From an uncultured Muribaculaceae bacterium (GTDB lineage: Bacteria; Pseudomonadota; Alphaproteobacteria; Rs-D84): DNA of 39,555 bases. The notes beneath the pieces were generated by a model. That model worked only from the letters and a program-made list of their open reading frames with translations, was not told the DNA's origin and did no database searches. The first letter of the stretch is position 1, and each line of letters starts with the position of its first letter. The position numbers and the translations under genes are program-made. The stretch spans positions 1-39,555 of the forward strand of contig CAYJAG010000005.1 of NCBI GenBank assembly GCA_964368385.1, given 5' to 3'. Shown piece by piece: positions 9,494 to 36,261 of this stretch.

Positions 9494-10245
9494 AAACTTG
9501 CGTGATAATTCCCTGCCGCGCAGGGTCTGAAAGATTGGCAAAAAAACACCTGGCCGACATCAACGGAAAATCATTGATGCATCGCGTCTATGAAGTTGTC
9601 GCAACCCAGTTTAATCCGGCCGACATTTTTATTGCAGTTGATAACGAAGAATACTTTGACCATGCGCGCGGCTTTGGCGCGAACGCGGTAATGACCGATG
9701 TAAATTGTCCATCCGGTACAGACCGCATAGCCCAGGCTTTGGATACGATTGACCCACGTGGCGAAATTTATGACTTTGTTATAAATTTCCAAGGCGACGA
9801 TGTAAATGTGAATCCAAAAATAAGTCGGCATCTGGCAGAAATTTTGGAAAAAACTGGCGCAGATTTGGCGACCGCGGTTCAACCAATAGTGGATGAAAAT
9901 ATGATTATGAATCCATCAGTTGTAAAAACCGCAATGGTTCAATCAACTGGACGTTGTTTGTATTTTTCGCGCAGTCCAATTCCTTTCAATCGTGCGGTGG
10001 GATGCATCGACAAGGCTTTTTGGCATATCGGAATGTATGCATATAACTTGAAATCATTGCGTCGTTTTGTCGCGCTGCCGGTGGGTGAATTAGAACAAAC
10101 AGAAAAATTAGAACAGCTGAGATTCTTGGAAAACGGAATGAGCGTTTTTACCGCAATTCTTGATGATACGCGTCTGGATCCGCGCGCGCCAGCAGATGTG
10201 AATACAGCCCAGGACCTGGAAGAAATAAGGAAGTTTATAAAATGA
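9490..10245 (+). CDS. kdsB: 3-deoxy-manno-octulosonate cytidylyltransferase (CMP-KDO synthetase)
   Basis: 251 aa. VIIPCRAGSERLAKKHLADINGKSLMHRV and ...NFQGDD... are KdsB signatures. It is adjacent to kdsA. Confidence 0.85.
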   Translation: MKTCVIIPCRAGSERLAKKHLADINGKSLMHRVYEVVATQFNPADIFIAVDNEEYFDHARGFGANAVMTDVNCPSGTDRIAQALDTIDPRGEIYDFVINFQGDDVNVNPKISRHLAEILEKTGADLATAVQPIVDENMIMNPSVVKTAMVQSTGRCLYFSRSPIPFNRAVGCIDKAFWHIGMYAYNLKSLRRFVALPVGELEQTEKLEQLRFLENGMSVFTAILDDTRLDPRAPADVNTAQDLEEIRKFIK

Positions 10246-11078
10246 AACACATAAAAATTTCAGACAAAGTTATTTTTGGAAACGATTTGCCATTCGTTTT
10301 GATTGCAGGACCATGCGCCATGGAATCGCGTGACCACGCAATGTTTATGGCTGAAAACCTGATGAAAATTACCGACAAACTGGGAATACCTTTTGTATTC
10401 AAAACCAGTTTTGATAAAGCAAACCGGACATCATTGTCTTCAGGACGTGGAACCGGTCTAGATTATGCTATGAAAGTGTTTGATGAAATTCGTGAAAAAC
10501 TGGGGTGCGCTTGCATAACGGACATTCATCTGCCAAATCAGGCAGAAATTATTGCGCCGCATGTCGACATGCTGCAGATTCCGGCTTTTCTGGCGCGTCA
10601 AACAGATTTGCTGGTTGCGGCCGCAAAGACAGGAAAGCCTGTGAATGTCAAAAAACCACAATGGTCCGCGCCCCAGGATATGAAATCTACATTGGGAAAA
10701 ATGTATGATTCTGGAAATCAAAACATTTTGCTGTGTGAACGCGGCACCAGTTTTGGTTATAACAATTATGTTGTTGATATGCGCAGTATTCCATGGATGT
10801 CTGCATTGGACGCGCCAGTTGTAATTGATGCAACGCATGGAATTCAACAGCCGGCATCCAGTGGATGCACATCTGGTGGCGATCGCCGCCTTGCACCTGT
10901 TATCGCGCGCGCGGCATTGGCGATTGGTGTTGCGGCGGTATTTACCGAAGTGCATGATAATCCAGATTCTGCGCCATGCGATGGACCAAATATGATTAAA
11001 CTTTCCGATATGGAAAATCAATTATGTGTTTGGAAAGATATAGATAAAATTGCAAAAGCAAATCAGATAGTTATGTAA
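10242..11078 (+). CDS. kdsA: 2-dehydro-3-deoxyphosphooctonate aldolase (KDO-8-P synthase)
   Basis: 278 aa. FVLIAGPCAMESRDHA, FKTSFDKANRTS, QIPAFLARQTDLL, NVKKPQ, CERGTSFGYNN and DATH are all KdsA motifs. Confidence 0.92.
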   Translation: MKHIKISDKVIFGNDLPFVLIAGPCAMESRDHAMFMAENLMKITDKLGIPFVFKTSFDKANRTSLSSGRGTGLDYAMKVFDEIREKLGCACITDIHLPNQAEIIAPHVDMLQIPAFLARQTDLLVAAAKTGKPVNVKKPQWSAPQDMKSTLGKMYDSGNQNILLCERGTSFGYNNYVVDMRSIPWMSALDAPVVIDATHGIQQPASSGCTSGGDRRLAPVIARAALAIGVAAVFTEVHDNPDSAPCDGPNMIKLSDMENQLCVWKDIDKIAKANQIVM

Positions 11079-15193: not shown

Positions 15194-16630
15194 TTGCAAA
15201 GCGATATGCGCGGAAATTTTTTGCTGCAAGCTTTGCTGGCAATCGCCTTGGTGATGTCATTTATGTCTTTTATGGCGCCAAAATTGTCCGCGCGAAAAAG
15301 TGATGCTGCCATGGCTGCAATCGCACGCCAGGCTGAAACCGCCGCCCGCGCTGCCCGTCAATTTGTCCGCGCGAACAAATCAAGCATTGTTTATGGTCCA
15401 CGCAACATTGCGGGTGATGAATTTTCCGATTTATTGGAGCCTTTCGGTTTGCCATTGGGTTTTGTCCCGTTGACCACGGCGCAACAAAAAATCTCTCTTT
15501 TGACATCAAAAAACGATTCTGGTGTTTTGGCCTTGATAGTTCTGCAGGATGGCAAAATTTCAGATATAAAGCGCCGCGAGTTAATGGCGCGAATCGGATC
15601 TGATGCAGCATCTGCTGATAATGATGGAGTTTTGCATGGAATTGGCGGCTGGGAAAAATCCCTTAAAGATTTTGGTATAAAACCAGATTCCGCGGCCGTT
15701 TATATTTTGGTTCCAGCAGATGATGATTTTTCAGAATTGATTCGACGCAGCGCAAATGATTCTGCCAGAAACAAGTTTCACATTGATCTTTCTATGGGAG
15801 GGATGTCTGTGAAAAACAGCACCTCGCTTTCCGCAAGGAATGCCGAGCTGGGCACCGCAAACTTTGGCACTTTATCCATAACCGGTTCCAGCGATGAAAG
15901 AAAATTTAAGAATAAGATAGAGCTGGTATCCGCCACGCGCGCAGTATTTCAGACGCGGGATGGGGCAAATGCATTGAACATTTCCAAGGGCGATCTGAAT
16001 GCAAAATCTTTGTCTGCGCAAACTCTTTTCAAATATGGAATTCCAGGCGCAGTTGATGCTGGGTCGACCTCGATTAATTCATTATCAATGGCGGTCGGTC
16101 GATCAGGATTTATCGGAATGTATGATTGGGACATTCACAGCGATGTAATTTTGAATAATGTTTCAATAGACACCGAACATCTTGAAATCAATGGTTTTAT
16201 AAATGCTTCGCGCGGTCAGGATGTGTTTATAGATAAAGATGAATTAACGTATTCAACAAAAAGTGGTGTCGAGACAAGAACGCTCAGCGCCGCATCTATT
16301 ACACTGCGCGACCAGGTTTCCAGCGCCTTGCTGTCGGGATCTGATGGCGCAGTGATTTTGGACATTAGGCCAGCTGGTGTTTCTGTCCTGACAGATGTTT
16401 TATCTGACACTATAAATAACGACGCATTTGAGATACTTAAAAATCCAGCCGCCGATGATGGTACTCTGATTGGTTGCAGAAATATAATTTCTTCGCTGTC
16501 ATCGGCCCCGACATATAATTCCAAATCGGCTGCGCAAAACATTGTGTGCCAGTTCGTTTTCTGGCAGCGTCTGGAGCGGCGCATAAATATAAAACAATGC
16601 ATGTTAGACGGAGGCAGTAATTGTGGGTGA
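15194..16630 (+). CDS. Large prepilin-like (class III signal) protein, paralog 1 of 3; short leader, Gln at +5, Cys-rich C-terminus
   Basis: 478 aa. TTG start at 15194, 7 nt after GGAGGG (alternative ATG at 15206). The N-terminus is MQSDMRG|NFLLQALLAIALVMSFMSF. It shares the internal motifs ..RRELMARIGSDA.. and DLSMGGMSVKN with the next two ORFs. The last ~55 aa contain 4 Cys. Confidence 0.6.
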   Translation: MQSDMRGNFLLQALLAIALVMSFMSFMAPKLSARKSDAAMAAIARQAETAARAARQFVRANKSSIVYGPRNIAGDEFSDLLEPFGLPLGFVPLTTAQQKISLLTSKNDSGVLALIVLQDGKISDIKRRELMARIGSDAASADNDGVLHGIGGWEKSLKDFGIKPDSAAVYILVPADDDFSELIRRSANDSARNKFHIDLSMGGMSVKNSTSLSARNAELGTANFGTLSITGSSDERKFKNKIELVSATRAVFQTRDGANALNISKGDLNAKSLSAQTLFKYGIPGAVDAGSTSINSLSMAVGRSGFIGMYDWDIHSDVILNNVSIDTEHLEINGFINASRGQDVFIDKDELTYSTKSGVETRTLSAASITLRDQVSSALLSGSDGAVILDIRPAGVSVLTDVLSDTINNDAFEILKNPAADDGTLIGCRNIISSLSSAPTYNSKSAAQNIVCQFVFWQRLERRINIKQCMLDGGSNCG

Positions 16631-16639
16631 TAAGTGTAA

Positions 16640-17941
16640 ATGATGAATGATAAATTAAAGGATTTTTACAAAAAATATATCCTGGGTGAAAAGACTTCAT
16701 CCCCTGTCGTTCATAATTCGTTACTCTGTCAGCGAGGTGCGGGATTATTGGAAACTTTACTGGCAATCGCTGTTGTCGGTGCCGTTCTGCCTTTTGCTTA
16801 TAATAGTGCGATAGAAATGAGTCACAACATCGCAGATACCACCGAAGCAAACCGAGTTTTGGCATGGCATGATCCAGTAATGGCCTATGTTCGCAAGAAT
16901 CAGTCGGATTGGCCATCGACCGCACAGATAGAATTTGATGAAGAGGAAGTTGTTGTTATGGGGACTGGCGACAATCGGCTGTTGTACCCATATGCTGGAT
17001 TTATTGAAAAGCGAGATGGTTCAGGTGGCTCGGTTATAAATGCCTATTTGGCGTTCCGTCCTGTTGGCATAACCGAAACACGCGTTGCAAACATTGCAAA
17101 GAATCTGGGTTCTGATGCTGCTGTTGCCAGCGCGGGTGGAAATGCTTCCAGTTCAGCCGGCTGGAGTATTTATTCCGAGCTGTTTACAGATGGCGATTTA
17201 ATTTTTAGAATTTCGGACATTTTGGGCGATGATGATGCATACAAGTACTTGCACAGAACTTATTTGGATGATGCAGAATTGAACACCATGCGTCGCGATC
17301 TGAATATGGCAAAACATAGCATTTTTGACATTGGAAAAATAACAGCTCAAACATTGAATGCAACAAATTCGAACCTTTGGTTTATTGAAACTCCACATAT
17401 TCAGACGTCCGAAATTTATTTTCCCGAAGGCGCGTCCATTGATGCGTCCAAAGCAATCTTTGGTTCGATTAACGTGAATGGGGATGTTAATGGACTGCGA
17501 AAAATCACAGCCGGAAAATTAAAAGGATCGGGCGTTCTTGCTGGTGCGCAGTGGTCTTCACGCGGAGATGTTGTTGCAGATTCAGTAAATGTAAATGGGC
17601 CGGTTAATGTCCAGCGAGATATGGTGGTTCGTGCAGAAACCGCGCGCAGTATAAGTGGCTTTGCGGGGGTGCGTGCGAACTCGGTTGCAACGCCGTATAT
17701 TTTTGCAGATCAGATGTTTTTTGCCAGTGGTTATGGAATAACAATTTCAAGTGAGTTGTTATATTCCACCAGCGGTGTGCCAATAAAACTGGGAAGTTGG
17801 GGCTTTCCATCATCAAGCAGTCCAAAATTTTCCACGCTGACATTGTATAAATCCAGTGGAAAGGAATTAGGTGAAGTGTTGGGTGTTCCAAACACAAAAG
17901 ATGTTGCCCAGATAATGAAAAGCGGATGGAAAAATCTGTGA
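16640..17941 (+). CDS. Large prepilin-like (class III signal) protein, paralog 2 of 3; 33-aa conserved leader
   Basis: 433 aa. ...LLCQRG|AGLLETLLAIAVVGAVLPF has Gly at -1, Glu at +5 and about 20 hydrophobic residues. Shared motifs are ..TRVANIAKNLGSDA.. and DLNMAKHSIFD. The C-terminal half has G/V/N/S-rich beta-type repeats (INVNGDVNG.., VNVNGPVNV..). Confidence 0.6.
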   Translation: MMNDKLKDFYKKYILGEKTSSPVVHNSLLCQRGAGLLETLLAIAVVGAVLPFAYNSAIEMSHNIADTTEANRVLAWHDPVMAYVRKNQSDWPSTAQIEFDEEEVVVMGTGDNRLLYPYAGFIEKRDGSGGSVINAYLAFRPVGITETRVANIAKNLGSDAAVASAGGNASSSAGWSIYSELFTDGDLIFRISDILGDDDAYKYLHRTYLDDAELNTMRRDLNMAKHSIFDIGKITAQTLNATNSNLWFIETPHIQTSEIYFPEGASIDASKAIFGSINVNGDVNGLRKITAGKLKGSGVLAGAQWSSRGDVVADSVNVNGPVNVQRDMVVRAETARSISGFAGVRANSVATPYIFADQMFFASGYGITISSELLYSTSGVPIKLGSWGFPSSSSPKFSTLTLYKSSGKELGEVLGVPNTKDVAQIMKSGWKNL

Positions 17942-19302
17942 ATGAAAAATTAAAGAATTTTTATAATAAATATATTATGGGTGAAAAAGTTTCATCAAAT
18001 TCCGATTGTCGTTCGCGTGGCGGAATGATGCTGGAAATACTTTTGTCTTTGGCTATTGCGTCGGCTGCACTACCTTTTGTTCTGCGGCAATTAGATGATC
18101 GCACACATCGCGCTGAAAATGTAAGCGTAGCGCGCGACATTGCGATGACTCGCGATGCATTGGAACGTTATATGGATGCGCGAAAACGCGAATTGTTGGC
18201 ACCGACCGGATCGGCCGTTACGCGCGTGCGAATGCGCGACCTGGTTGAATACGGAAACATTCCAAAAAATTATGACAAGTTCCAAGCCCGTATAATAAAA
18301 TCCAAGGATGCAAGCGGACGTGCAGTTTTATCCGGTATGGTTATATTTGATTCTGCGGATATATCGCCTGTGCGAACACGCGAAATTGCAGAGCTTGGGG
18401 GTGAGGGCTCAGGATTTGTAGAGCGAAACGAGGCATACAGCGCATTCGGAACGTGGCGTAGCAAGACAAGTATTTTTGATGCGCAATTTGGCAAGGACTC
18501 GGTAGTAGAAAGTACAGGTACAATTTTGTCTGGCGGTGATTTTCTTTGGAGATTGCCGTCAAATGAGCCGCTAGATGGATCAATGGCCAGCGATCTTTCT
18601 ATGGGTGGGTATGGCATAAATGATGCCCAGCAAATAGATTCGTATAGCGCAGATTTCACAGAAATTCTGCGTGCGAATTTAATTTCTGCACGAAAAGTAC
18701 AGATTACGCCGCGCGCAAATTTCGAATCTGCACTGAACGTATCGGGCGAAGCCATGGTAATGGGCGCAATGACATCTGATTCAAGAAATGCGCAGATAAG
18801 CTCGGAAATGTTTTTAAATGGCGAAGCGCGCTTGACTAGATTGGATACAGCTGAACTTTGGGTCGGCGATCTGAATCTGAACGGACTTTCTGTTGGCGGC
18901 AGCGAGAAGCCAGCAATTCTGAAAGTGGGGCAGACCATAGACATTACCCGTGGTCGTATAACGGCGCGCATAGCAACAGTTGGATATAGCGGATCGGTCG
19001 CCCCGAAAATTGTTGTGACCGAGCGCATGGAAGATCCAGATAATAGGGCATATTATTGGGACTTGAAATCAGGGGATGCCCAATTTTTCGATGTTTCTGC
19101 TGGACAGCTGAATCAAATGATGAAAAATGCAATTCGCGCCGAATCAAAAAGTCCAAAAACAACCACAGAAACAATAATCAGCCAAGTGGCCGCAAATAAT
19201 AATGCGACCGTATCCGATTATGCGCGTGCACTGGGCGAAATCCAAAGCAAGGTTATGATAAAATATAACCGCTTGAAATTAGACCAGGGCAGTGTAGAAT
19301 AA
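17926..19302 (+). CDS. Large prepilin-like (class III signal) protein, paralog 3 of 3; conserved long leader
   Basis: 458 aa. ...DCRSRG|GMMLEILLSLAIASAALPF has Glu at +5. Shared motifs are ..TREIAELGGEG.. and DLSMGGYGIND. The alternative GTG start at 17938 would give a GTGA overlap with the paralog-2 stop and align the two N-termini. Confidence 0.6.
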   Translation: MEKSVNEKLKNFYNKYIMGEKVSSNSDCRSRGGMMLEILLSLAIASAALPFVLRQLDDRTHRAENVSVARDIAMTRDALERYMDARKRELLAPTGSAVTRVRMRDLVEYGNIPKNYDKFQARIIKSKDASGRAVLSGMVIFDSADISPVRTREIAELGGEGSGFVERNEAYSAFGTWRSKTSIFDAQFGKDSVVESTGTILSGGDFLWRLPSNEPLDGSMASDLSMGGYGINDAQQIDSYSADFTEILRANLISARKVQITPRANFESALNVSGEAMVMGAMTSDSRNAQISSEMFLNGEARLTRLDTAELWVGDLNLNGLSVGGSEKPAILKVGQTIDITRGRITARIATVGYSGSVAPKIVVTERMEDPDNRAYYWDLKSGDAQFFDVSAGQLNQMMKNAIRAESKSPKTTTETIISQVAANNNATVSDYARALGEIQSKVMIKYNRLKLDQGSVE

Positions 19303-19307
19303 AATAT

Positions 19308-19784
19308 ATGAAAGTTACATGCCCGTTTTGTAAAGTTGAGTATTCTGTGCGCAACCAGAATTGCCGTTTATTTCAGTGCGCGGTGTGTGGTTGCACATGG
19401 CGCGCGCCGACGCGTGAAAAAAATTCGCGATTTTGGATTTTTATTTTGTCGTGCTTTGTTTTATTGTTGGCGGTCTTTTCACTTGTTGCTTTGCTGCTTT
19501 GGATTCCACACACAAACGAGGCATTGTCTGTCCGAATGAATTCGGCTGTTCGCGCGAATGAAATTTTGATTGTGTCTGGCGTTGTTTCTAACAAGTCGGA
19601 AAAATTATATGGCGTTCCAGATTTGATTGTGTCGCTGAAAGATAATCGAGGTATGGAAATTTCATCTGAAAAATTCGCGCCACCGGCGCCGTTGCTGGAC
19701 GCGGGGGAAGAGGCAAATTTTTCAGTCCAAGTTCATAATGTCCCGGAAGGGGTGGATAAAATCTCGGTGGAATTTAATAAATGA
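19308..19784 (+). CDS. MJ0042-type zinc-ribbon / TM / DUF3426 protein (ZitP-like)
   Basis: 158 aa. MKVTCPFCKVEYSV....FQCAVCGCTW has two CxxC pairs. One TM segment follows (FWIFILSCFVLLLAVFSLVALLLWI). The C-terminal ILIVSGVVSNKS..PDLIVSLKDNRG...LLDAGEEANFSVQV...VDKISVEF fits the DUF3426 pattern. Confidence 0.65.
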   Translation: MKVTCPFCKVEYSVRNQNCRLFQCAVCGCTWRAPTREKNSRFWIFILSCFVLLLAVFSLVALLLWIPHTNEALSVRMNSAVRANEILIVSGVVSNKSEKLYGVPDLIVSLKDNRGMEISSEKFAPPAPLLDAGEEANFSVQVHNVPEGVDKISVEFNK

Positions 19785-26672: not shown

Positions 26673-27386
26673 CTAGCCGACAATTCCATCATTGATAGTA
26701 ATAATTCTATCGGCGCGTTTGGCCAGATTCATGTCATGAGTCACAAACAACATTGACATATGTGTCTGCTTGGTCAGCGAAAGAAGTAAATCAAAAACAT
26801 TCGTGGCATGCGCGGGATCAAGACTGCCTGTGGGTTCATCCGCCAGCAGGATTTCAGGATCATTTGCCAGCGCGCGCGCGACCGCGGTGCGTTGCTGTTC
26901 ACCACCAGACATCTCGGCAGGCCTGTGGTCGGCGCGATGTAAAACATTTGCAGCCTTTAACAACTTTTGTGCGCGAGTACAAGCGACGTCCTCATCAATT
27001 CCATTCGCCAGCATTGGCAACATCACATTTTCAAGTGCGGTAAAATCTTCCAACAAATTATGTCGCTGATAAACAAAACCCAATTTAGTGCGCCGCATTG
27101 CGGTGCGCTGGTCTTCGGACATTTTATTTGTTGGAATGCCGGCAATTACAATTTGCCCACCGGTGGGTTTTTCCAGCAATCCCACACATTGCAGTAAAGT
27201 TGATTTACCACATCCAGATGGCCCAACCAGCGCGATAATTTCACCACGCAGCAAATCAAATCCGCCGCCACGCATGATATGCAAAGGCTGTCCGCCTTCG
27301 ATAAACGATTTTCTGATTCCAGCAACCGACAAGACCGAGGCGCGCTTTTTCACAGATGATAAAGATTTTAGTATTGATGCTGCCAT
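26673..27386 (-). CDS. lolD: Lipoprotein-releasing system ATP-binding protein LolD
   Basis: 237 aa. Walker A GPSGCGKSTLL, signature MSGGEQQR, Walker B ILLADEPTGSLD. It lies 1 nt downstream of a LolC/E-type permease gene. Confidence 0.85.
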   Translation of the reverse strand: MAASILKSLSSVKKRASVLSVAGIRKSFIEGGQPLHIMRGGGFDLLRGEIIALVGPSGCGKSTLLQCVGLLEKPTGGQIVIAGIPTNKMSEDQRTAMRRTKLGFVYQRHNLLEDFTALENVMLPMLANGIDEDVACTRAQKLLKAANVLHRADHRPAEMSGGEQQRTAVARALANDPEILLADEPTGSLDPAHATNVFDLLLSLTKQTHMSMLFVTHDMNLAKRADRIITINDGIVG

Positions 27387-27387
27387 T

Positions 27388-28641
27388 TTATTCGTTCCTT
27401 AAAACTTCCACGGGATCTGTTTTTGCCGCCTTCCATGCAGGGTAAAGCGTTGCCAAAAACGCCAATGCAATCGCAACAAATGCAATTCCTGCAACATCCC
27501 AGAATTCTATTTTTGACGGCAGCTCGGATAGAAAATATAAATCCGCCGGGAACAGGTCGCGACCGGTCGCCCATTGGAAAAACTGCCGTATTGGTTCAAT
27601 ATATTTTGCAACCAAGATCCCCAGTATTGTTCCAAAAGCTGCGCCGATTATCCCGATACTGCTGCCGCACAGGATAAAGATTTTCATCATGCTGCGACGG
27701 GACACACCGAATGTGCGCAATACAGCAATGTCACGCGATTTGTCTTTTACCAGCATTACAAGAGACGACACAATGTTAAACGCTGCAACAATCACGATTA
27801 AAAGCAAAATCAAAAACATAACATTTGATTCAACCTGCAGGGCGCCGACAAATCCACGATTTAGATCCCGCCAATCACGCACAATAAATCCCGTGGGCAG
27901 ACTGGCGGCCAATGCATCGCGCACCTGGGTTGTTTTGTTTGGGTCGGTTAAAAATAAATCTATGTGCGAAACTCCATCAGATGAGTCCAAAAACTTTTGC
28001 GCAGTTTCAAGCGGCATGAAAATATATCCGGAATCATATTCATACATTCCAGCAAAAAAAGTAGTCGCCACAGGATAAGATTGAATCCGTGGTATTGTCC
28101 CAAATGCAGTTGCTGTGCCGCCATTTGCGCTGATAAGCGTTGCCGGATCATTTTGGGTTAATCTTAAATTTCTGGACAAGGCCGCGCCCATTACCAGTTG
28201 TCCATCTTTCACATCGGATATAGGTGTGCCGTAAATTTTCGTACCAGTTTGGAATTTATGCTGTAAATCGCTCATTCTGATTCCGCGAACCATGGCGCCG
28301 GAATTGTTTCCATTTGCGGAAATCATGACTTGGCCTTCCAAAACTGGAACTATGTCTGTTGTTGCGGCTGCGACAACTTTATTGTCCTTCATCTTTTCAA
28401 TCAAGTAATCAAAGTCTTTGATTGCGCCGTCCTGATGATAAACAACAACATGACCATTCATACCAACGATACGCGAAAGTAAAGTATCATGAAAACCACC
28501 CATAACCGACATAACAACGATAAGCGTTGCAACGCCCAATGCAATCCCCAGCAAAGATACCCAAGAAACCACGCTGCCGAAACCACGCCCCTTGGCGCGC
28601 AGATACCTGAATGCAATTTTCTTTTCAAGACGATTAAACAT
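27388..28641 (-). CDS. lolC: Lipoprotein-releasing system permease, LolC/LolE family (single copy)
   Basis: 417 aa. KIAFRYLRAKGRGFGSVVSWVSLLGIALGVATLIVVMSVMGGF is the LolC/E N-terminus. A large periplasmic domain follows, then the FtsX-like C-terminal 3 TM segments. Confidence 0.85.
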   Translation of the reverse strand: MFNRLEKKIAFRYLRAKGRGFGSVVSWVSLLGIALGVATLIVVMSVMGGFHDTLLSRIVGMNGHVVVYHQDGAIKDFDYLIEKMKDNKVVAAATTDIVPVLEGQVMISANGNNSGAMVRGIRMSDLQHKFQTGTKIYGTPISDVKDGQLVMGAALSRNLRLTQNDPATLISANGGTATAFGTIPRIQSYPVATTFFAGMYEYDSGYIFMPLETAQKFLDSSDGVSHIDLFLTDPNKTTQVRDALAASLPTGFIVRDWRDLNRGFVGALQVESNVMFLILLLIVIVAAFNIVSSLVMLVKDKSRDIAVLRTFGVSRRSMMKIFILCGSSIGIIGAAFGTILGILVAKYIEPIRQFFQWATGRDLFPADLYFLSELPSKIEFWDVAGIAFVAIALAFLATLYPAWKAAKTDPVEVLRNE

Positions 28642-28643
28642 TT

Positions 28644-29975
28644 TTATTCCTCTAGATACTCGCGCAGTTTATCACCGGAAATTGTCGGCGTTCTTGTTGC
28701 TTCGCCGGGCTCTACTATTGAAACGACGCGCGGGCTCATAAACACAACCAATTCCGCAAATGGATTTATTAATGTTTCAGGTTCGGTCACAAAGCTGTGT
28801 GTCGGAATTCCGATTATCACATAGTTGTCCCCCAAGCTGGTTGGAACATTAAAACTGGCCAATTCACCATCGCTGGTACGAAGTGTTATTTTGGCATCCA
28901 GTTTCATCATATCTGCATACTGACCATATTTTCCAGTTGCGCCAACAATAAGGTCCGTTTCTAATCTGTCTTCGCGTGAACATTGTCCGATATCAAACCG
29001 ACTTTGCCAGCCATTTGGTATCACAAATGTTCCCTGGGAAATTAAAACTACATTGGCTTGCTGTGATAAGAATGATTGCAATGTTTTTGTGTTTACCTCG
29101 GGCGACACTACCAGCAATCTGCCGACGACGCCAGGTATCGACATCTTTATATTATCATCCCCGAATGCAGGCAGCATGTTCATCCATACTATTGGATTAT
29201 CAGTCCGCGGATAAACGCGATACACATCCATGTCCCATGCCACCAGGAATTTTTTAGTGCCGACATCCGCAACGATTGCGCGAACTTCGCGTTCGGTCTG
29301 GTAATTTCCCTCGAATACCAGGGTTTTATCTTCCCAGTTAGTCAGCAGGTTGCGCAGCTCGGCCCCGCGCATCGCGTCAATCAATGCCATTATCATGTGT
29401 TGATCTTTTGGCATTTTCATCAACCATTTTCCGCGTGATGAAATCCGAATTTCTTTGGCATCGTCATCATAAGAATAATAAACTTTGCCCAATTTGCAGA
29501 TAAGTTCTACCGCGTCTTCCAATGTTCCAGATTTGATTTCTCCGCTGATTAGATCTGGCACGTTGTCCGATGCGACTACCTTTATCTTTGTGCCTTTCAA
29601 CAGGTTTTCCAAAACATCTGGGACATTCTTTTTCTTGAATGCAAAATCCTCGACGGCAAAATCAGGCAAGTTATCGCCTTTGTTTAATCGTACGATTTCC
29701 ACAGGCTGGGCCGGGATAACAGACATTATGTTTTGGTTGTCCCAATCAACCTTGCATCTTTTTGGAAGGTCTATGGCAAAACGACGCGCAGTGTCGGTTG
29801 TTAATCCAGCTTTGCGTGGGAATATGGGAACCGAGTACTCGTCCACAACCGTGTTTTCAACAATCTCTATCGTATCGTATTGTGTTTGATTTTGCTGTTG
29901 CATTTGTGTGCAACCAGCCAGCACAAGGCACAAGACAAAGGTCATAGATAATAAATTTTTCAATTTCATATTCAT
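28644..29975 (-). CDS. Lipoprotein with secretin-like architecture (N0-like domain, ring-building-like domain, secretin-like C-terminus); family assignment tentative
   Basis: ORF 28644..30005 trimmed to ATG 29975, which has AAGGAA 6 nt upstream. The signal and lipobox are MNMKLKNLLSMTFVLCLVLAGC. FAFKKKNVPDVLENLLKGTKIKVVASDNVPDLISGEIKSGTLEDAVELICKLGKVYYSYDDDAKEIRIS resembles a secretin N0 domain. The C-terminal ...LGDNYVIIGIP........FAELVVFMSPRVV resembles the secretin-domain end (dG.t.viGGl ... ELLIFITPRIV). Confidence 0.4.
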   Translation of the reverse strand: MNMKLKNLLSMTFVLCLVLAGCTQMQQQNQTQYDTIEIVENTVVDEYSVPIFPRKAGLTTDTARRFAIDLPKRCKVDWDNQNIMSVIPAQPVEIVRLNKGDNLPDFAVEDFAFKKKNVPDVLENLLKGTKIKVVASDNVPDLISGEIKSGTLEDAVELICKLGKVYYSYDDDAKEIRISSRGKWLMKMPKDQHMIMALIDAMRGAELRNLLTNWEDKTLVFEGNYQTEREVRAIVADVGTKKFLVAWDMDVYRVYPRTDNPIVWMNMLPAFGDDNIKMSIPGVVGRLLVVSPEVNTKTLQSFLSQQANVVLISQGTFVIPNGWQSRFDIGQCSREDRLETDLIVGATGKYGQYADMMKLDAKITLRTSDGELASFNVPTSLGDNYVIIGIPTHSFVTEPETLINPFAELVVFMSPRVVSIVEPGEATRTPTISGDKLREYLEE

Positions 29976-30024
29976 AGTTTGTTCCTTGTTTATGGGCAGC
30001 ACCATTAATAGGTTTTATGATATA

Positions 30025-30333
30025 TTAAATGTTCATAACCTTTTCGAATTCTTCCAAAGTCATTTCATATATTGGTTTGTTGCTGGGGGTTGTTAAATTT
30101 TTCATACCCTGAAATTCCGTGTTATATTTTTTTATTAAAGCCTTTAATTTAGCATCGCCGGTATTTAATTTTTCCCCATACGCATTCAGCATTTCCAATA
30201 TATCCGCAGCAAAGAATCTTCCTACATAGTTTTCTGGTGCGATACCGCCTTTTTGAGTGCGAACTGCCGCCGATAAAGTTTTTAATGCCTCATAAAAACC
30301 TGCTATTCGGATGTATCTTTCTTCAGCGGTCAT
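30025..30333 (-). CDS. Small helical hypothetical protein, first gene of the secretin-like/lolCD unit
   Basis: ORF 30025..30423 trimmed to ATG 30333, which is preceded by the strong SD GGAAGGAG. 102 aa (MTAEERYIRIAGFYEALKTL...), with no signal peptide. Same strand as the genes downstream. Confidence 0.5.
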   Translation of the reverse strand: MTAEERYIRIAGFYEALKTLSAAVRTQKGGIAPENYVGRFFAADILEMLNAYGEKLNTGDAKLKALIKKYNTEFQGMKNLTTPSNKPIYEMTLEEFEKVMNI

Positions 30334-30481
30334 CTGCTTCTCCTTCCTGGACTGCATTATAAACTTAAAACATTTGCTTTCGCAAGTCCAAAAGGATGAG
30401 GGATTGATAATAAAACGCCCCAAGTAAGGTGCAGATAAATTTAGATTGCCAAGAATTGTATTTTTGGTTTATAATTTGTTT

Positions 30482-30868
30482 GTGAAAAAAATATGTGCCT
30501 TATGCCTTGTTATGTACGCATTGTCAGGTTGCTCGTCTGCCAATCGGGGCTCTATTGACGATGCGACAGTTTTGAACTGGGAAAATGATGCCGTAACCAC
30601 CGAGCAATTTGTCCGCGATCATAAAAATTGTCTGGGGGTGACGCGCCCGGCCCATATGCCACGTTCCAGACTTGCAAAACTTATCAGCCCGAACCAGTCC
30701 GGATTAATGCCCGATTGGGATGGTCTGTGGGTTACATTCCAATCAAATGAAAGTCCTGATACGGGTCAGCGCTCGCTGATGTCTGTGCCACCAAATACCA
30801 GTGCCCGGTCGGTCGGGTCATACCGCAGATGCATGATGAGACGCGGTTATTTATTAAGAGCTTATTAA
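30482..30868 (+). CDS. Small lipoprotein, function unknown
   Basis: ORF 30446..30868. GTG 30482 gives (M)KKICALCLVMYALSGC, a signal with the lipobox LSGC. The TTG 30446 start cannot be excluded. Confidence 0.5.
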   Translation: MKKICALCLVMYALSGCSSANRGSIDDATVLNWENDAVTTEQFVRDHKNCLGVTRPAHMPRSRLAKLISPNQSGLMPDWDGLWVTFQSNESPDTGQRSLMSVPPNTSARSVGSYRRCMMRRGYLLRAY

Positions 30869-30948: not shown

Positions 30949-31635
30949 ATGAAAAACAAATTCCTGTTTTGGCTGTCATTAGCCGTAGCGGTGTTGCTGG
31001 CGGTTTATCTTGGCGTGCGCATCAGCATGGTTCTGATGGGCGCGGGCGGATCGCTATCATCGATCAAGAAAATTTCTGTACATTCCAGCAATGGCCAGGT
31101 TGCGGGTCTTATTTCGCGCCTGGGGATTGAACCAGGCGTTCGGCATGTTGATTTGGATCAGGCTTTGACGCGCATTGCGGCCGATCCAGATGTGGCAAGT
31201 GCTGGCGTGCGCCGTATGCCCAATGGTGAAATAAAAGTCCGCGCAAAAATGAGGGTTGTTATCGCCAGTTGGACCGATGGACAAAATTATTATCCTTTGG
31301 ACGATACGGGCGCGCCGATAAATCGCCCATCGTCAGAACGGCCTGCAAACACTTTGATTTTTTCTGGTCAAGTCCCAGGCGACATTTCATCAGCCATAGC
31401 AGCGTTAAAGCAGACCCCTGGGCTGTTTTATCGCACAGACAGAATAGAGTTTGTAGAGGGCAGACGTTGGGACATTTTTTTGCTTAACGGGATTCGTATT
31501 ATGTTGCCCGAAGAAAATTTTGCCATCGCTGCTGAAAAAATAGAAAAGCTGAACAAGCAAAATATGATTTTAGACAGACAAATAACACTTTTGGATTTGC
31601 GTGATCCAGCGCGCGTGCTTGTAAAATTAAAATGA
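30949..31635 (+). CDS. ftsQ: Cell-division protein FtsQ
   Basis: 228 aa with an N-terminal TM segment (FLFWLSLAVAVLLAVYLGV). It has a POTRA-like segment and the ...RWDIFLLNGIRIMLPEEN... motif typical of FtsQ. It overlaps ftsA by 4 nt. Confidence 0.8.
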   Translation: MKNKFLFWLSLAVAVLLAVYLGVRISMVLMGAGGSLSSIKKISVHSSNGQVAGLISRLGIEPGVRHVDLDQALTRIAADPDVASAGVRRMPNGEIKVRAKMRVVIASWTDGQNYYPLDDTGAPINRPSSERPANTLIFSGQVPGDISSAIAALKQTPGLFYRTDRIEFVEGRRWDIFLLNGIRIMLPEENFAIAAEKIEKLNKQNMILDRQITLLDLRDPARVLVKLK

Positions 31636-33407
31636 ATCTGACAGATGGTGCATTTTTATGTTTAGACATTGGATCGTCCGGCGTGCATGCGGTCGCTGTA
31701 CGTGTCAGCTTTGGCCGTATCAAAGCGTCCGCAAATGCATTTGCGGAATCCAAAGATGCAATCTGGGCATTAAAATCAGCTGTAGATAGTTTAGAAGAAC
31801 AAATTGGCTCGCGCTTTGACTCTGCATTCGTCACGGGAAATTTTGGTGCGATAAAATCAGAGATTTTTTCGCGAAAAACAGCATGGGCAACCGAGCATAA
31901 AATCACCCCACAAGATGTTTTAGAGCAAGTATCAGACTCAACCGAAGATGGATTTTCAATTTTACATATAATTCCGCTGCGCTATGATATGTCGGGATTT
32001 CACAACATTGCAAATGTGGTTGGACAAACTGATTGCGCGTTGCTTTCGGTGTTTCATTCAATTTCTTATTCTGATGAAGGATTGCTGCGAGCAAAGTCCG
32101 CTTTGCATGGCGCGCATTTAGAGTCGGATGGATTTTTTGATCCATCATTTATTTTAGCGGCCAATGTGCGTGAGTCTGCCCAGGCATCTATTTTTATAGA
32201 TTTTGGCGCCCAGTTCACCAGTGTTTCACTTTGGACGCCCCGGGGTCCAATGCTGATAGCAAAAGTGCCTTTGGGTGGCGCGCGAATTACAAAAGAAATC
32301 GCCAAAGCTTTCGGCTTGCCTGTTGCCGAGGCAGAACGACTGAAAATTTCCGGCATGACATTGATGCACACGGATATGGACAGATTTACACCCAGTGATG
32401 CAAAGCATGACATTACCAGATTTGAATTGAATGAAGTGACCGGCGCGGTGTTTTCTGAAATCTTGAGTCAAGTGCATGATGCATTGGACGTTGGTATACA
32501 AAAATACAATCCGGCAAAACTTTATATCAGTGGTGGTGGCGCGCAAATTTCCGGATTGGACGCGGCATTGGAAAAAGAATTTTCCATGCCAGTAAAAAAT
32601 CTAGGCACGTTCGGAATTGCCAACGCGTTGGCAGAATTTGTCTGGAATACCGAATCATCTCGAATCTCTAGTTATCTGGCGCGCAGAAAAAAATGGGACA
32701 AGTTTTTCGGATTCTTGTTTGCGCCTTTGCGTTGGCGGTTGAAAACTGGGCGCAAGCGTTTGGTGCCGATTATGCCCAGCACTCTTGTGTTGGATATGCG
32801 CAGTGGGGCGACCTATGCAAAATTTGCATCGGCGAACATTAGTATGATTCATGTTGATGTTATGGATGGATTTTATGTTGAAAAAATTGCAAGCGGAATT
32901 GACGAGCTTCGCTTTATCCGCGCACACACAAAATCGCATCTGCATGTTCATCTGATGACAGAAAATCCGGTCAGTTGGGCCGCGGAAGCAATAGAAGCCG
33001 GTGCAGATACGATAATTGTTTCATCTGGAACTAATGGAGTAGTGCGCGCATTGCGTGAAATTCGCGCCATGGGTCGCCGCGCAGGAATTGCGTTGCATCC
33101 AAATACTCCACTGGATGTCATCGCGCCCGTGCTGCGCGAAATTGACGAAGTTATGGTTATGTCGGTTGTTCCAGGGGCATCAGGACAATGTTTTATTGAT
33201 ACTTCACTTTCGCGTATTACGGCGCTTTACAATACCAGACGTCGACACGGATTAAATTTCAAGATTTCGGTTGATGGTGGAATAAATCCCGAAACAGCAA
33301 AAAAATGCTGGGCTGCAGGCGCAGATTTACTGGTCGCAGGAAGTTTTCTGGCGTCTGCGCCTGACTTTGCCGGGGCTGTTCAAGAATTAATCGGCAAGCG
33401 CGGCTGA
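31632..33407 (+). CDS. ftsA: FtsA fused in frame to a ribulose-phosphate 3-epimerase-like domain
   Basis: 591 aa. Residues 1 to about 345 are actin-fold FtsA (CLDIGSSGVHAV..., IFIDFGAQFTSVSL, LYISGGGAQISGLDAALEKEFSMPVKNLG). KKWDKFFGFLFAPLRWRL resembles the FtsA amphipathic membrane-targeting helix. No stop codon follows it, and an Rpe-like domain comes next. Confidence 0.75.
   Translation: MNLTDGAFLCLDIGSSGVHAVAVRVSFGRIKASANAFAESKDAIWALKSAVDSLEEQIGSRFDSAFVTGNFGAIKSEIFSRKTAWATEHKITPQDVLEQVSDSTEDGFSILHIIPLRYDMSGFHNIANVVGQTDCALLSVFHSISYSDEGLLRAKSALHGAHLESDGFFDPSFILAANVRESAQASIFIDFGAQFTSVSLWTPRGPMLIAKVPLGGARITKEIAKAFGLPVAEAERLKISGMTLMHTDMDRFTPSDAKHDITRFELNEVTGAVFSEILSQVHDALDVGIQKYNPAKLYISGGGAQISGLDAALEKEFSMPVKNLGTFGIANALAEFVWNTESSRISSYLARRKKWDKFFGFLFAPLRWRLKTGRKRLVPIMPSTLVLDMRSGATYAKFASANISMIHVDVMDGFYVEKIASGIDELRFIRAHTKSHLHVHLMTENPVSWAAEAIEAGADTIIVSSGTNGVVRALREIRAMGRRAGIALHPNTPLDVIAPVLREIDEVMVMSVVPGASGQCFIDTSLSRITALYNTRRRHGLNFKISVDGGINPETAKKCWAAGADLLVAGSFLASAPDFAGAVQELIGKRG
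32772..33407 (+). other. rpe: Rpe-like (ribulose-phosphate 3-epimerase) domain inside the ftsA reading frame, beginning at an in-frame ATG
   Basis: MPSTLVLDM..., IHVDVMDGFYV, HVHLM, HPNTP, VMSVVPGASGQCF, ISVDGGIN and GADLLVAGSFL are colinear with the Rpe motifs (APSILSAD, HxDVMDGHFVPN, DVHLM, NPxTP, MSVNPGFGGQxF, VDGG, GADxxVAGSAxF). Confidence 0.7.
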
Positions 33408-33519: not shown

Positions 33520-36261
33520 ATGAGAATAAAAAAAGCAATAATCGTTGGTTTGATGCTGCCTTTGGTATCTGAAATTTGTGCGATGCCGTCAGGGGCTGTC
33601 AGCTATGTGAATACGCCGACCTCGCGACCAAGCACCACGGCGCGCATGCCGACATTGCTGACTGGTTCAATTACCAGCACGGCATATTCTACTGCAACAA
33701 ATGCTGGATTGGCTGCGACTTGCGCAAATCCATTGCCGGAAAGACTTACCTCGAACAGGTGCATTGACAGATACGATTCGTGCCTGCATCAGGAAAATGT
33801 CTGCGGAGAAAATTTTGAGCTGTGCTATAACTTAAAGCAATTTAACAAGTCCCGCATAATGTGCCAGGATTATCTGGCCCAATGTCCGGCCGAGGCAATC
33901 AAAGCCATCTTTGGAAATTCGGTTACAACATCGGATGATTTTTCCGCAGCAAATCGCGCGATGTGCGATGGTGAATCCGTTTTAATAAAAAGATCATTTT
34001 CTCCAGCGCTTGGTGACATCGCGGTTGCCGGCGACAGCAGAATTGACATTGCTATAAAAGAGGGCAGAAACTGGGCGGCTGCAAACAGCGTAAAAACTTG
34101 CAACAAGGCTGCTGATGTATGTATTCAGAATGCCTGCCAAGGTTCCCCACAAAAATGTATTTCTTTGACTGGATTTTCAGACATAGACACGGCCGAGATG
34201 GTGAATATAGCCACCTCTGGCGAAACAACATTGCGCTTGAATGCAAAAATGTTGGAAACTTGGATTTTCAATATGGGATGGGATGACAGCAATGTAAAGA
34301 ATTATCTGAAAGAGCAATGCCGCGAAACCATTGGCGCAAACGAATGGTGCTTTATGGTAACAAATGGCAAGCCAGCCAAGGAATCCGACTTGGTTGATAA
34401 TTTTAACATCCAGGAAGTTTTTCAAGACATTATGTATAATGGCGTTGGTGCGCGTTGGAAAATGTCACAATCCAAGATAAAAGAATGGGCCGCAGCGACA
34501 ACCAAAAATTCTGTCGCGCAATGCCAGACTGCATTGACTGACTGCGCAATAAATGCATGTGGCGAAGGATCGCGCGCGCGTTGCTATGGATTGGCAAAAG
34601 ATGGCAACTCGGTCAGTATAAAGAATAAAGCAGGTTCTGACATCGAAGGCCAATGCAAAAATCTGATAGAAAACAATCAATACTGCAAGGATGTTTTCCG
34701 CAACAATGAAACCGGCCTTGATGGGGATGTTTGGACACAGGTTTGGACAAATGATGTTATGGGAACCATAGTCGGTCTGGATTCTGATTTGCAAAAAATG
34801 TTTAACGAAGAGGCTGTGGCAGAAATGCGCCGTAGCTGTCAGACCCAGGCTGAAAAATGTGTCCAAGACGAATGCGGAAGTGATTTCTCGCGCTGCTTTA
34901 TCACCAGCAGTGATGCAAAAAAATCAAGCCAAGTTGCTTTTGCCTCTGGCAAAGTAACCAGCAGTTTGTTTGCCGGCGGGTTTGACGAAGCCTTGGCTCG
35001 TGATCTGTGCATACTGAAAGTAAAACAAGTCACAGATTGTAATGATTATTTTGATGTTCAATATGCAAAGCAATCAAGCGGCAAAAGTGCTGACGCATGG
35101 GCTACATCCAGCACAGCTCGCAATGCTTGGCTGGGCGCTGCTAACAGCACGACAGAAGACAATGTATGTCGAGTGACCGAAACATATCTGGATAAATATG
35201 ATGTTTCTGGCAATGCGATTGACCCAACGGTTAAGCTGGCATCCAAGGTAAAGGTTTGTGCAGCCCAAGAACGCAGTATATTTGATGGATTGCTGGGCGA
35301 TATAAACAAGCGCGCGAATTCGGTTCTGGAACGCGAAGCAAATGATATCAAAAATACTTGCGAGAACAGCAATGTCAAAGGTTCAACTGAAAAAGACTAT
35401 ATCTGGGCAGCATTTGATGGTTTAGGCGCATCTGACGAATACAGCGGATTCAGCGAAGTTAGCGAGACAAGCAATCCATTTGATGGATTCTGCGCAGTCA
35501 GGGTAACAATTCGTTCTAATAATTCCAAAGTGGTCAGCGCACTTGGTGGTAATAAAACAATGTATTATCCAAAAGGCACAACTATGCCTTGTTTGGGCCT
35601 GACTACGGACGAACTGGAGAAAGTGGAACGCGCGGTTGCATCCGATGTGAAATTCTGTGGTTCGAATGAAACAAGTGCAACTCATGGCTGTGTGGAAAGA
35701 ATGACAGGCTTGCAAAAGACACTGAGCATAGGTGGCGCCACCTTGGGCGGTCTGGTTGTCGGCGGCTTGGGCGGAGTCATGGCTGGAAATGCAATACAGA
35801 ATCAAACAACCAGCTCTGGTAATGGCATGGGCGAGGCTAATAGAGTCATGTTGAAAAATTGCAATTCATGTTTGGCCGCGCAAGGCGCTGGATTCAGCAG
35901 CAAAAACGCTTGCGGTTCTGCCAGTGCGGGCGATAACGATGATGGCAAAAGCAATGCTATTGCAAAGAATCTTTGCCAAGCAAAGGCAAACGAACTTAGC
36001 GCTAAAACGAAAAAACAGACAAACAGCAGCTTGATGGACTTTACCAGCACTGGCGGAATTACTGGGGCAAGTGTTGGTGCTGGATTGTTGGGTTTAACCG
36101 GTGGACTTTTGGCTGGCAATGCGATTGACCAAAATGAAAAAGACAAGTTGGCAGAAGCCCGTCAGCAAGCCATAGATGACTTTAACGCCAAAACAGATAT
36201 AAATTGTTATATCGGTGGTAGGAAAGTTGCCGCGTATGGTTCTGATATGGTTATAAAATAA
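33520..36261 (+). CDS. Large secreted modular cysteine-rich protein with two C-terminal glycine-zipper segments; no family recognised
   Basis: 913 aa with GGTGGGA upstream and the Sec signal MRIKKAIIVGLMLPLVSEICA. A Ser/Thr/Pro-rich linker follows. I counted about 39 Cys, including four C-x6-C-x4/6-C-x6/7-C motifs. GGATLGGLVVGGLGGVMAGNAI and GGITGASVGAGLLGLTGGLLAGNAI lie near the C-terminus. Confidence 0.7.
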   Translation: MRIKKAIIVGLMLPLVSEICAMPSGAVSYVNTPTSRPSTTARMPTLLTGSITSTAYSTATNAGLAATCANPLPERLTSNRCIDRYDSCLHQENVCGENFELCYNLKQFNKSRIMCQDYLAQCPAEAIKAIFGNSVTTSDDFSAANRAMCDGESVLIKRSFSPALGDIAVAGDSRIDIAIKEGRNWAAANSVKTCNKAADVCIQNACQGSPQKCISLTGFSDIDTAEMVNIATSGETTLRLNAKMLETWIFNMGWDDSNVKNYLKEQCRETIGANEWCFMVTNGKPAKESDLVDNFNIQEVFQDIMYNGVGARWKMSQSKIKEWAAATTKNSVAQCQTALTDCAINACGEGSRARCYGLAKDGNSVSIKNKAGSDIEGQCKNLIENNQYCKDVFRNNETGLDGDVWTQVWTNDVMGTIVGLDSDLQKMFNEEAVAEMRRSCQTQAEKCVQDECGSDFSRCFITSSDAKKSSQVAFASGKVTSSLFAGGFDEALARDLCILKVKQVTDCNDYFDVQYAKQSSGKSADAWATSSTARNAWLGAANSTTEDNVCRVTETYLDKYDVSGNAIDPTVKLASKVKVCAAQERSIFDGLLGDINKRANSVLEREANDIKNTCENSNVKGSTEKDYIWAAFDGLGASDEYSGFSEVSETSNPFDGFCAVRVTIRSNNSKVVSALGGNKTMYYPKGTTMPCLGLTTDELEKVERAVASDVKFCGSNETSATHGCVERMTGLQKTLSIGGATLGGLVVGGLGGVMAGNAIQNQTTSSGNGMGEANRVMLKNCNSCLAAQGAGFSSKNACGSASAGDNDDGKSNAIAKNLCQAKANELSAKTKKQTNSSLMDFTSTGGITGASVGAGLLGLTGGLLAGNAIDQNEKDKLAEARQQAIDDFNAKTDINCYIGGRKVAAYGSDMVIK

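Follow-up and report, generated by a model that had tools for sequence, protein, structure and literature searches.

The minus strand of a 39,555-nt stretch of DNA (the window: contig CAYJAG010000005.1 of assembly GCA_964368385.1) carries four co-directional genes, the second of which, SEC, encodes a strongly diverged, shortened and lipid-anchored member of the secretin superfamily. The source is deposited as an uncultured Muribaculaceae bacterium and belongs to the GTDB order Rs-D84 (Alphaproteobacteria). In the direction of transcription the genes are h102 (30025..30333), SEC (28644..29975), a LolC/E-type permease (27388..28641) and a LolD-type ATP-binding cassette (ABC) ATPase (26673..27386), separated by 49, 2 and 1 nt. 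The h102 product is a helical protein of 102 amino acids (aa) without signal peptide, its ATG preceded by AGGAAGGAG, and has no Pfam, NCBIfam or PHROG match. SEC is a 443-aa lipoprotein with the signal peptide MNMKLKNLLSMTFVLCLVLAGC, the lipobox LAGC and Cys22 as lipidated residue. The permease, a single-copy gene of MacB type (Pfam MacB_PCD and FtsX), passes the NCBIfam LolCE equivalog TIGR02212 with 417 bits against a cut-off of 362. The ATPase (Pfam ABC_tran) has TIGR02211 as its best NCBIfam match, at 243 bits under the cut-off of 308, and is therefore named LolD from this match together with its operon position. The tight packing of the four genes had been described in an earlier reading of the sequence alone (the sequence-only reading) and is confirmed, as are the three SEC peptide stretches quoted there, all of which are found in the translation. 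Because SEC has 1234 relatives and the h102-SEC-LolC-LolD block recurs in 80 species-level genomes, the four open reading frames (ORFs) are real genes rather than chance. A sigma-70-like promoter candidate is situated 5' of h102 (30356..30385, minus strand; TTGCGA-18-TATAAT, 10 of 12 positions, a consensus match only). It is the only good promoter-like site on the minus strand, although such matches are no commoner in this DNA than in shuffled sequence. No terminator-like site is found between the four genes.

Curated models, to which the sequence-only reading had looked for support, do not recognise SEC as a secretin, and the gene passes as 'hypothetical' in standard annotation. At E<=1 neither Pfam, including PF00263, nor the PilN-family model TIGR02520 matches SEC, and NCBIfam returns nothing beyond a chance-level match to the EscC/YscC N-terminus (residues 119-182, 11.5 bits, E 0.087). 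PF00263 is likewise without a match in nine diverse relatives (P0122, P0124, P0133, P0138, P0142, P0147, P0156, P0160 and P0169), PDB sequence searches retrieve no secretin, whether started from the single SEC sequence or from either of two family profiles, and PHROG contains no match. The homology that all curated thresholds miss is visible by the reach of phmmer and by profile-profile and fold comparison. An exhaustive phmmer search with SEC against 1.8 billion cluster representatives yields 114 clusters, the weakest of which (E 2e-7 to 7e-4) are lipoproteins carrying PF00263. These secretins score best on the models of MshL (MSHA pilus) and PilN (type IVb, TIGR02520), in both cases under the cut-off.

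Profile-profile alignment (hhalign) of the close SEC family with seven PF00263 secretins gives a probability of 99.4 % (E 2.3e-21), and 28 diverse family members raise it to 99.9 % (E 6.8e-35). The alignment joins SEC residues 85-427 to residues 59-472 of a 744-aa secretin and runs from N0 through N3 and the entire Pfam secretin region to the ELV..PR.I ending; with only the 114 C-terminal residues the probability is 89.6 % (E 1.9e-6). A first AlphaFold2 model, built from 42 close sequences, has a mean predicted local distance difference test score (pLDDT) of 69.5, and its top 20 PDB matches are all secretins, with BfpB leading (E 2.9e-10). The second model, built from 66 sequences spanning the family, is a compact and confident monomer (pLDDT 87.0, predicted TM-score 0.76, all five models at 85-87). 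Its top 26 Foldseek matches in the PDB are again all secretins (PilQ, BfpB, InvG, GspD, ExeD/EpsD and pIV), two of them partial structures: 6pee, described as the beta-barrel of the InvG secretin domain, and 7ofh, a pIV pore of 231 residues. The N0 domain, the ring-building segment and the secretin C-terminal ending that the sequence-only reading had recognised in SEC are borne out by these alignments.

SEC consists of a lipid anchor, a linker, N0, one N3 and the secretin domain, and lacks N1, N2 and S domains. Signal peptide and lipobox comprise residues 1-22 (29910..29975; all parts are on the minus strand), as read from the sequence, and Cys22 is kept in at least 90 % of 66 family members. 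The linker (residues 23-83, 29727..29909) is delimited by the alignments and the pLDDT profile of the model. Its N-terminal end is of low confidence, and its second half is highly conserved (SVPIFP.KA.LTTD...F..L.KRC), with R73 and C74 invariant; by position it would be equivalent to the LG domain of BfpB. The STN-like N0 domain (residues 84-180, 29436..29726) is identified by hhalign to the secretin N-terminus and by Foldseek, which superposes it on the N0 of PilQ (4ar0) with a root-mean-square deviation of 2.3 A over 72 columns. The fold also matches EscC (3gr5, with the first model) and N0-N2 fragments of XcpQ, and the relative P0122 has a sub-threshold STN match (21.0 bits against a 28.4-bit cut-off, E 2.9e-4). 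The N3-like ring-building domain (residues 181-256, 29208..29435) is beta-alpha-beta-beta-alpha in the model and aligns to its secretin counterpart. It is followed by the shortened secretin domain (residues 257-421, 28713..29207), assigned by hhalign to the PF00263 region of the seven secretins and by Foldseek, with the invariant residues W264, G285, G315, W323, F327, C332 and G389 and the ending ELVVFMSPRVV. The C-terminal tail (residues 422-443 and stop codon, 28644..28712) is of low confidence in the model and ends in a short helix.

Compared with canonical secretins, the pore domain lacks about 55 residues, which fall into three gaps of about 20, 21 and 15 residues in the hhalign alignment. 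By position, these gaps would correspond to the inner gate hairpins and the lip of canonical secretins (general secretin topology, e.g. PMC7545093). All 66 aligned members have the same two cysteines, one in the linker (Cys74) and one at the first gap (Cys332), which suggests a disulfide that would staple the linker to the shortened domain. The three deletions, the possible staple and the compact, confident monomer model are all consistent with a degenerate secretin that has lost its pore and acts as a ring or tether in the periplasm or outer membrane, for instance in envelope integrity or partner-cell contact. However, the strands that form the barrel are still present, as is the C-terminal ELV..SPR motif, both with high conservation, and the fold matches include the InvG barrel and the pIV pore named above, so that such a non-pore role appears rather improbable.

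The relatives of SEC (E<=0.001) are counted as database clusters at 90 % amino-acid identity, and matches occur in 321 species-representative genomes. The family is confined to uncultured Alphaproteobacteria of the gut, namely Rs-D84 with Ca. Enterousia, and relatives. Its members bear no annotated name, and the organisms, where a source is stated, are uncultured 'Alphaproteobacteria', 'Rickettsiales' or 'Proteobacteria'. Genome records with SEC include metagenome-assembled genomes (MAGs) of Ca. Enterousia and come from gut, rumen and termite samples. Enterousia is a member of Rs-D84, an order with genomes below 1 Mb that miss most biosynthesis and with presumed dependence on partner cells (PMC12306168). 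Several contigs of the same alphaproteobacterial synteny (L001-L003, L010, L020 and L022; L numbers denote loci) bear the record title 'uncultured Muribaculaceae bacterium' or 'Bacteroides fragilis', which points to mislabelled or mis-binned MAGs. Over 80 species the median identity of SEC is 66 %, next to 76 % for LolC, 74 % for LolD, 65 % for RsmI, 52 % for AddB, 47 % for an FtsA-Rpe protein described below and 38 % for FtsQ. As the SEC value exceeds those of FtsA-Rpe and FtsQ, SEC is under strong purifying selection.

The gene neighbourhood was compared over 80 species-level loci of the close clade and 11 fetched loci of deeper lineages. Every close locus long enough to show it possesses the same block, in which h102, SEC, LolC and LolD follow a divergently transcribed small lipoprotein, lipo140. 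The h102 gene is directly upstream of SEC in 79 of the 80 loci, and the order SEC-lolC-lolD occurs in all 77 species whose locus reaches lolC. SEC and lolC are at most 100 nt apart in 68 of these 77, the other nine containing unrelated inserted genes of the same orientation; lolC and lolD are separated by an insertion in 11 of 75 loci. Such accessory genes lie in line with the operon and often overlap their neighbours. Examples between SEC and lolC are an HD-like 221-aa gene (L003, 11274-11939) and three unrelated genes (L058, 11234-13454); a 252-aa gene separates lolC from lolD in roughly eight species, directly so in L029 (12606-13364) and, judging by a gap of similar size, in six to eight further loci.

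The lipo140 gene (30446..30868, plus strand; lipobox LSGC) adjoins h102 in 78 of 80 loci. Its product has a median identity of 72 % (64-97 % over 78 species), is more conserved than FtsQ or FtsA, and stays beside the h102 block where ftsQA has moved away (L073 and L078). Library scans, including Pfam, NCBIfam and PHROG, give no family match for lipo140.

Among the deeper lineages, L081, L083 and L090 have a SEC of 36-43 % identity that is directly followed by lolC-lolD, overlapping lolC in L081 and L090, and every other neighbour differs. The sequence-only reading had named a widespread lolCD partner of already known function as a point that would speak against it, and half of this applies: SEC is a widespread and conserved lolCD neighbour in these lineages, and it has no known function. 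The far relatives L085-L089, L091 and L092, with 25-28 % SEC identity, were found by a profile search with far-group members only and have no lolCD beside SEC. Instead, their SEC is part of a same-strand cluster of an HTH_3 regulator, c2, c3, SEC and c5. The regulator is a double helix-turn-helix (HTH) protein of XRE type with about 330 aa; c2 (187-614 aa) and c3 (an acidic protein of 415-615 aa that precedes SEC) are soluble, and c5 (177-223 aa) is a bitopic inner-membrane protein whose small periplasmic domain contains Cys. Where lolCD follows SEC, it sits exactly where the far relatives have c5. In mid-distance clades, SEC is still preceded by the HTH protein, c2 and c3.

An hhalign comparison of 77 h102 orthologues with five c3 proteins gives a probability of 96.6 % (E 5e-10), by which h102 is a reduced homologue, or remnant, of the conserved C-terminal domain of c3. 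Because of this homology, a gene with an h102 domain directly 5' of SEC forms the invariant core of all these neighbourhoods. Profile hidden Markov models (HMMs) of the far-group c2, c3, c5 and HTH proteins have no significant match in the six-frame translated window, PHROG has none for c2, c3 or c5, and tblastn with lipo140, h102 and a 913-aa protein of the window (see below) finds no match in the five deeper-lineage loci L081, L083 and L085-L087. As a possible counterpart of c5, lipo140 is rejected (hhalign probability 0.7 %).

Four far loci possess three to four tandem polytopic paralogues directly 5' of the SEC cluster on the same strand (L086, 1385-7050; L088, 1198-7069; L089, 3-5941; L092, 1-4587). 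They have 7-10 predicted transmembrane (TM) segments and sub-threshold TrbL/VirB6 matches (E 4.8e-5 to 0.04) that always fall on the same profile region. L092 also contains a VirB11-like ATPase gene beside the cluster (10044-11033, opposite strand; TIGR02788, E 7e-39, under cut-off).

These genes hint at a link between the far-group cluster and type IV secretion, and SEC might accordingly be the outer-membrane part of a divergent apparatus related to type IV secretion systems (T4SS). Yet every match stays under the curated thresholds, the VirB11-like gene is on the opposite strand, and neither L087, L091 and the mid-distance clades nor the window, when searched with the paralogues, has VirB6-like genes. 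We know of no T4SS that uses a secretin, which also counts against this role, and we consider it very unlikely.

The XRE regulator at the head of the cluster in mid-distance and far clades resembles phage repressors, and phage secretins are among the fold matches of SEC (f1 pIV in the PDB, E 3.3e-5; viral matches at 2.7e-8 and 1.9e-4). Both features would fit a domesticated secretin of the pIV type from a filamentous phage. Against this stand the bacterial secretins, which match as well as or better than the phage ones when a viral fold library is compared, the lack of PHROG matches for SEC, h102, c2, c3 and c5, a chromosomal position fixed over 80 species and the lack of Zot-like ATPase or coat genes. 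A phage descent is thus highly improbable.

About 9 kb from SEC, the window contains a tandem of three prepilin-like genes (15194-19302, plus strand; 478, 433 and 458 aa). In the N-terminal region of each product, RG precedes a single hydrophobic segment, and Glu or Gln stands five positions further on (RG-x4-(E/Q)). A leader of about 30 aa (KLK.FY.KYI.GEK.SS) is conserved between the second and the third product. None of the three has a Pfam match, and the two scanned against NCBIfam have none there. A 158-aa protein follows directly (19308-19784, plus strand), with an N-terminal CxxC...CxxC zinc ribbon, one TM segment and no Pfam match.

The sequence-only reading had proposed that SEC and the trio belong to one dispersed system, with SEC as the secretin of a type IV pilus-like fibre. 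The prepilin-like N-termini agree with this, as do the secretins reached by sequence, which score best on MshL and PilN models, and the place of BfpB among the best fold matches. The distribution of the trio does not bear the proposal out. It is near SEC in L001 and L007 only, among the closest relatives; beyond lolD, most close species have an inverted or different segment, and the trio is not detected within the fetched 10-kb flank. Searches by tblastn do not find it in L081, L083 and L085-L087, and the conserved cluster of the far relatives contains no pilin-like gene. [quoted passage not shown] A pilus system made up of SEC and the trio therefore has a low probability in our view.

The explanation we favour, with about half of our confidence, is that SEC is the ring-forming outer-membrane portal of a lineage-specific envelope machine and that its link to lolCD is one of convenient co-expression. 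[quoted passage not shown] There it would assemble into a ring, the other machine parts being proteins other than canonical T2SS or T4P components. In far relatives, these parts would be encoded beside SEC as the XRE-type regulator, the two soluble proteins and the bitopic inner-membrane protein. In the genome-reduced Rs-D84, the cluster would have shrunk to h102 and SEC and joined the lolCD transcription unit. The simplest reading of this is co-expression of a lipoprotein with the pump that exports it, in a compact genome into which hitch-hiker genes are easily taken up.

This explanation builds on the homology of SEC, its architecture, the strong purifying selection, the pairing with an h102-domain gene and the shared operon with lolCD, all of which are established, and several points weigh against it. 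The SEC oligomer and its pore are putative, and with about 55 residues deleted at three places of the pore domain, SEC might not form a gated double barrel. As a monomer model is set against protomers taken out of rings, Foldseek reports low global TM-scores (0.13-0.27); the fold evidence is one of local structural alignment, not of global superposition. No pilin, prepilin peptidase, ATPase or platform gene is recognised in the 39.5-kb window, and a genomic survey of Rs-D84 mentions no type IV pili for the order, though it does for another lineage (PMC12306168). Finally, the conservation of SEC-lolCD at 36-43 % SEC identity while the rest of the neighbourhood is reshuffled suggests more than convenience.

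The last point leads to the view that SEC works together with LolCD, in which case the MacB-type pump and the secretin-like lipoprotein would form a trans-envelope route or hand over along one. Such a route could serve the insertion of outer-membrane lipoproteins, as LolB does, or the surface export of particular lipoproteins such as lipo140, with the secretin as exit in an Aat-like manner. It is favoured by an adjacency of SEC, lolC and lolD that is kept in four lineages, down to 36 % SEC identity, when all other neighbours have changed, by the position of lolCD in the exact place of the bitopic c5 with its periplasmic domain, and by a conservation of SEC about equal to that of housekeeping genes. 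Alphaproteobacteria are also without LolB (PMC9963962), and the Aat system provides a precedent for a Lol-like pump feeding an outer-membrane channel (PMC7943197). On the other hand, far relatives carry SEC without lolCD nearby, insertions are tolerated between SEC and lolC (9 of 77) and between lolC and lolD (11 of 75), the operon contains no adaptor protein, a bifunctional LolA already accounts for the missing LolB in Caulobacter, and all of the adjacency may stem from a single ancestral event in one order. We judge a working partnership unlikely, although it is the main rival of the explanation that we favour. Slightly more doubtful still is its most specific form, in which a LolCD-powered route of the genome-reduced Rs-D84 took over a minimal secretin as its outer-membrane end: SEC, replacing c5, would dock directly or through its N0 ring on the periplasmic domain of LolC to receive or export lipoproteins.

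Two further genes of the window lie on the plus strand. A 591-aa ORF (31632-33407) is FtsA-like in its N-terminal half (Pfam FtsA, residues 188-322) and also contains a complete ribulose-phosphate 3-epimerase (residues 380-572). It has matches over at least 60 % of the query in 72 related loci, near full length (about 1.77 kb) in the listed ones, and this recurrence suggests a conserved fusion, not a frameshift. The 913-aa protein (33520-36261) carries a single hydrophobic segment at its N-terminus, is without match in Pfam and NCBIfam, and occurs in the seven closest loci only.

To our knowledge, secretins are thought to be easily spotted and always tied to a T2SS, T3SS, T4P or filamentous phage. 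The fold and superfamily of SEC are known; new are a large subfamily invisible to annotation, with a trimmed pore domain and an invariant Cys pair, its non-canonical conserved gene cluster and its stable fusion to the lolCD operon in one order. Curated models miss this subfamily of about 1200 clusters at 90 % identity in 321 species-level genomes, and at the least a new family model is called for in annotation. The subfamily is found in gut bacteria with genomes below a megabase, which are believed to subsist on partner cells and for which no pili or secretion machines are reported, and SEC is for this reason a candidate surface apparatus for the interaction with partners. The operon link between SEC and lolCD is a testable case of a possible connection between secretins and the Lol pathway in a class that lacks LolB. 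Should a LolCD-powered secretin route be true, it would represent a new kind of system for lipoprotein insertion or surface export and a new use of the secretin fold.

Canonical secretins (GspD, PilQ, MshL, InvG/YscC and pIV; PF00263) share with SEC a homologous N0, N3 and secretin domain and the motifs 'V.I.a.i.Ev...GI.W', 'SQP.l.v..G..a.f.vG' and 'ELVI.l.PR.I'. SEC differs in falling under every curated HMM threshold, in its much smaller size of 443 aa, in the three missing pore segments and in having no T2SS, T3SS or T4P genes beside it.

LolB is comparable to SEC as a lipoprotein with a genetic tie to the Lol pathway; it resides in the outer membrane, the presumed destination of SEC, and is lacking in the class from which the window comes (PMC9963962). 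SEC is, however, far larger than LolA and LolB, has a secretin fold and shares neither sequence nor fold similarity with them, and neither protein is among the SEC family or fold matches. A second parallel is found in the Aat system (AatPABCD), which consists of a Lol-like type VII ABC pump and a TolC-like channel and exports an acylated protein to the surface (PMC7943197). In Aat and in MacAB-TolC, as in the present operon, a LolC/LolD-like type VII ABC transporter is encoded together with an outer-membrane protein. SEC is secretin-like rather than TolC-like, though, and the operon comprises only h102, SEC, LolC and LolD, without adaptor or dedicated acyltransferase; its LolC passes the housekeeping LolCE model, and a coupling to SEC is putative.

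The closest likeness in layout, noted already in the sequence-only reading and upheld here, is to the lipidated secretins of type IVb (T4b) pili. BfpB possesses an acylated Cys, the LG linker, N0, a single N3 and the secretin domain, without N1, N2 or S; its linker must span from N0 back to the outer membrane, and the lipid anchor makes a pilotin unnecessary (PMC12531336). BfpB, TcpC and R64 PilN thus correspond to SEC in the N-terminal acylated Cys and in the order linker-N0-N3-secretin, and BfpB is among the best fold matches (E 2.9e-10 with the first model, and 7.8e-9). In contrast to these three, SEC misses TIGR02520 and PF00263, has a pore domain shorter by about 55 residues and possesses the invariant Cys pair. 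The T4b partner proteins BfpG and TcpQ are periplasmic and N0-like, whereas h102 is helical and has no signal peptide or hydrophobic segment. T4b secretins, finally, are embedded in a pilus operon, whereas SEC, free of such surroundings, shares its operon with lolCD.

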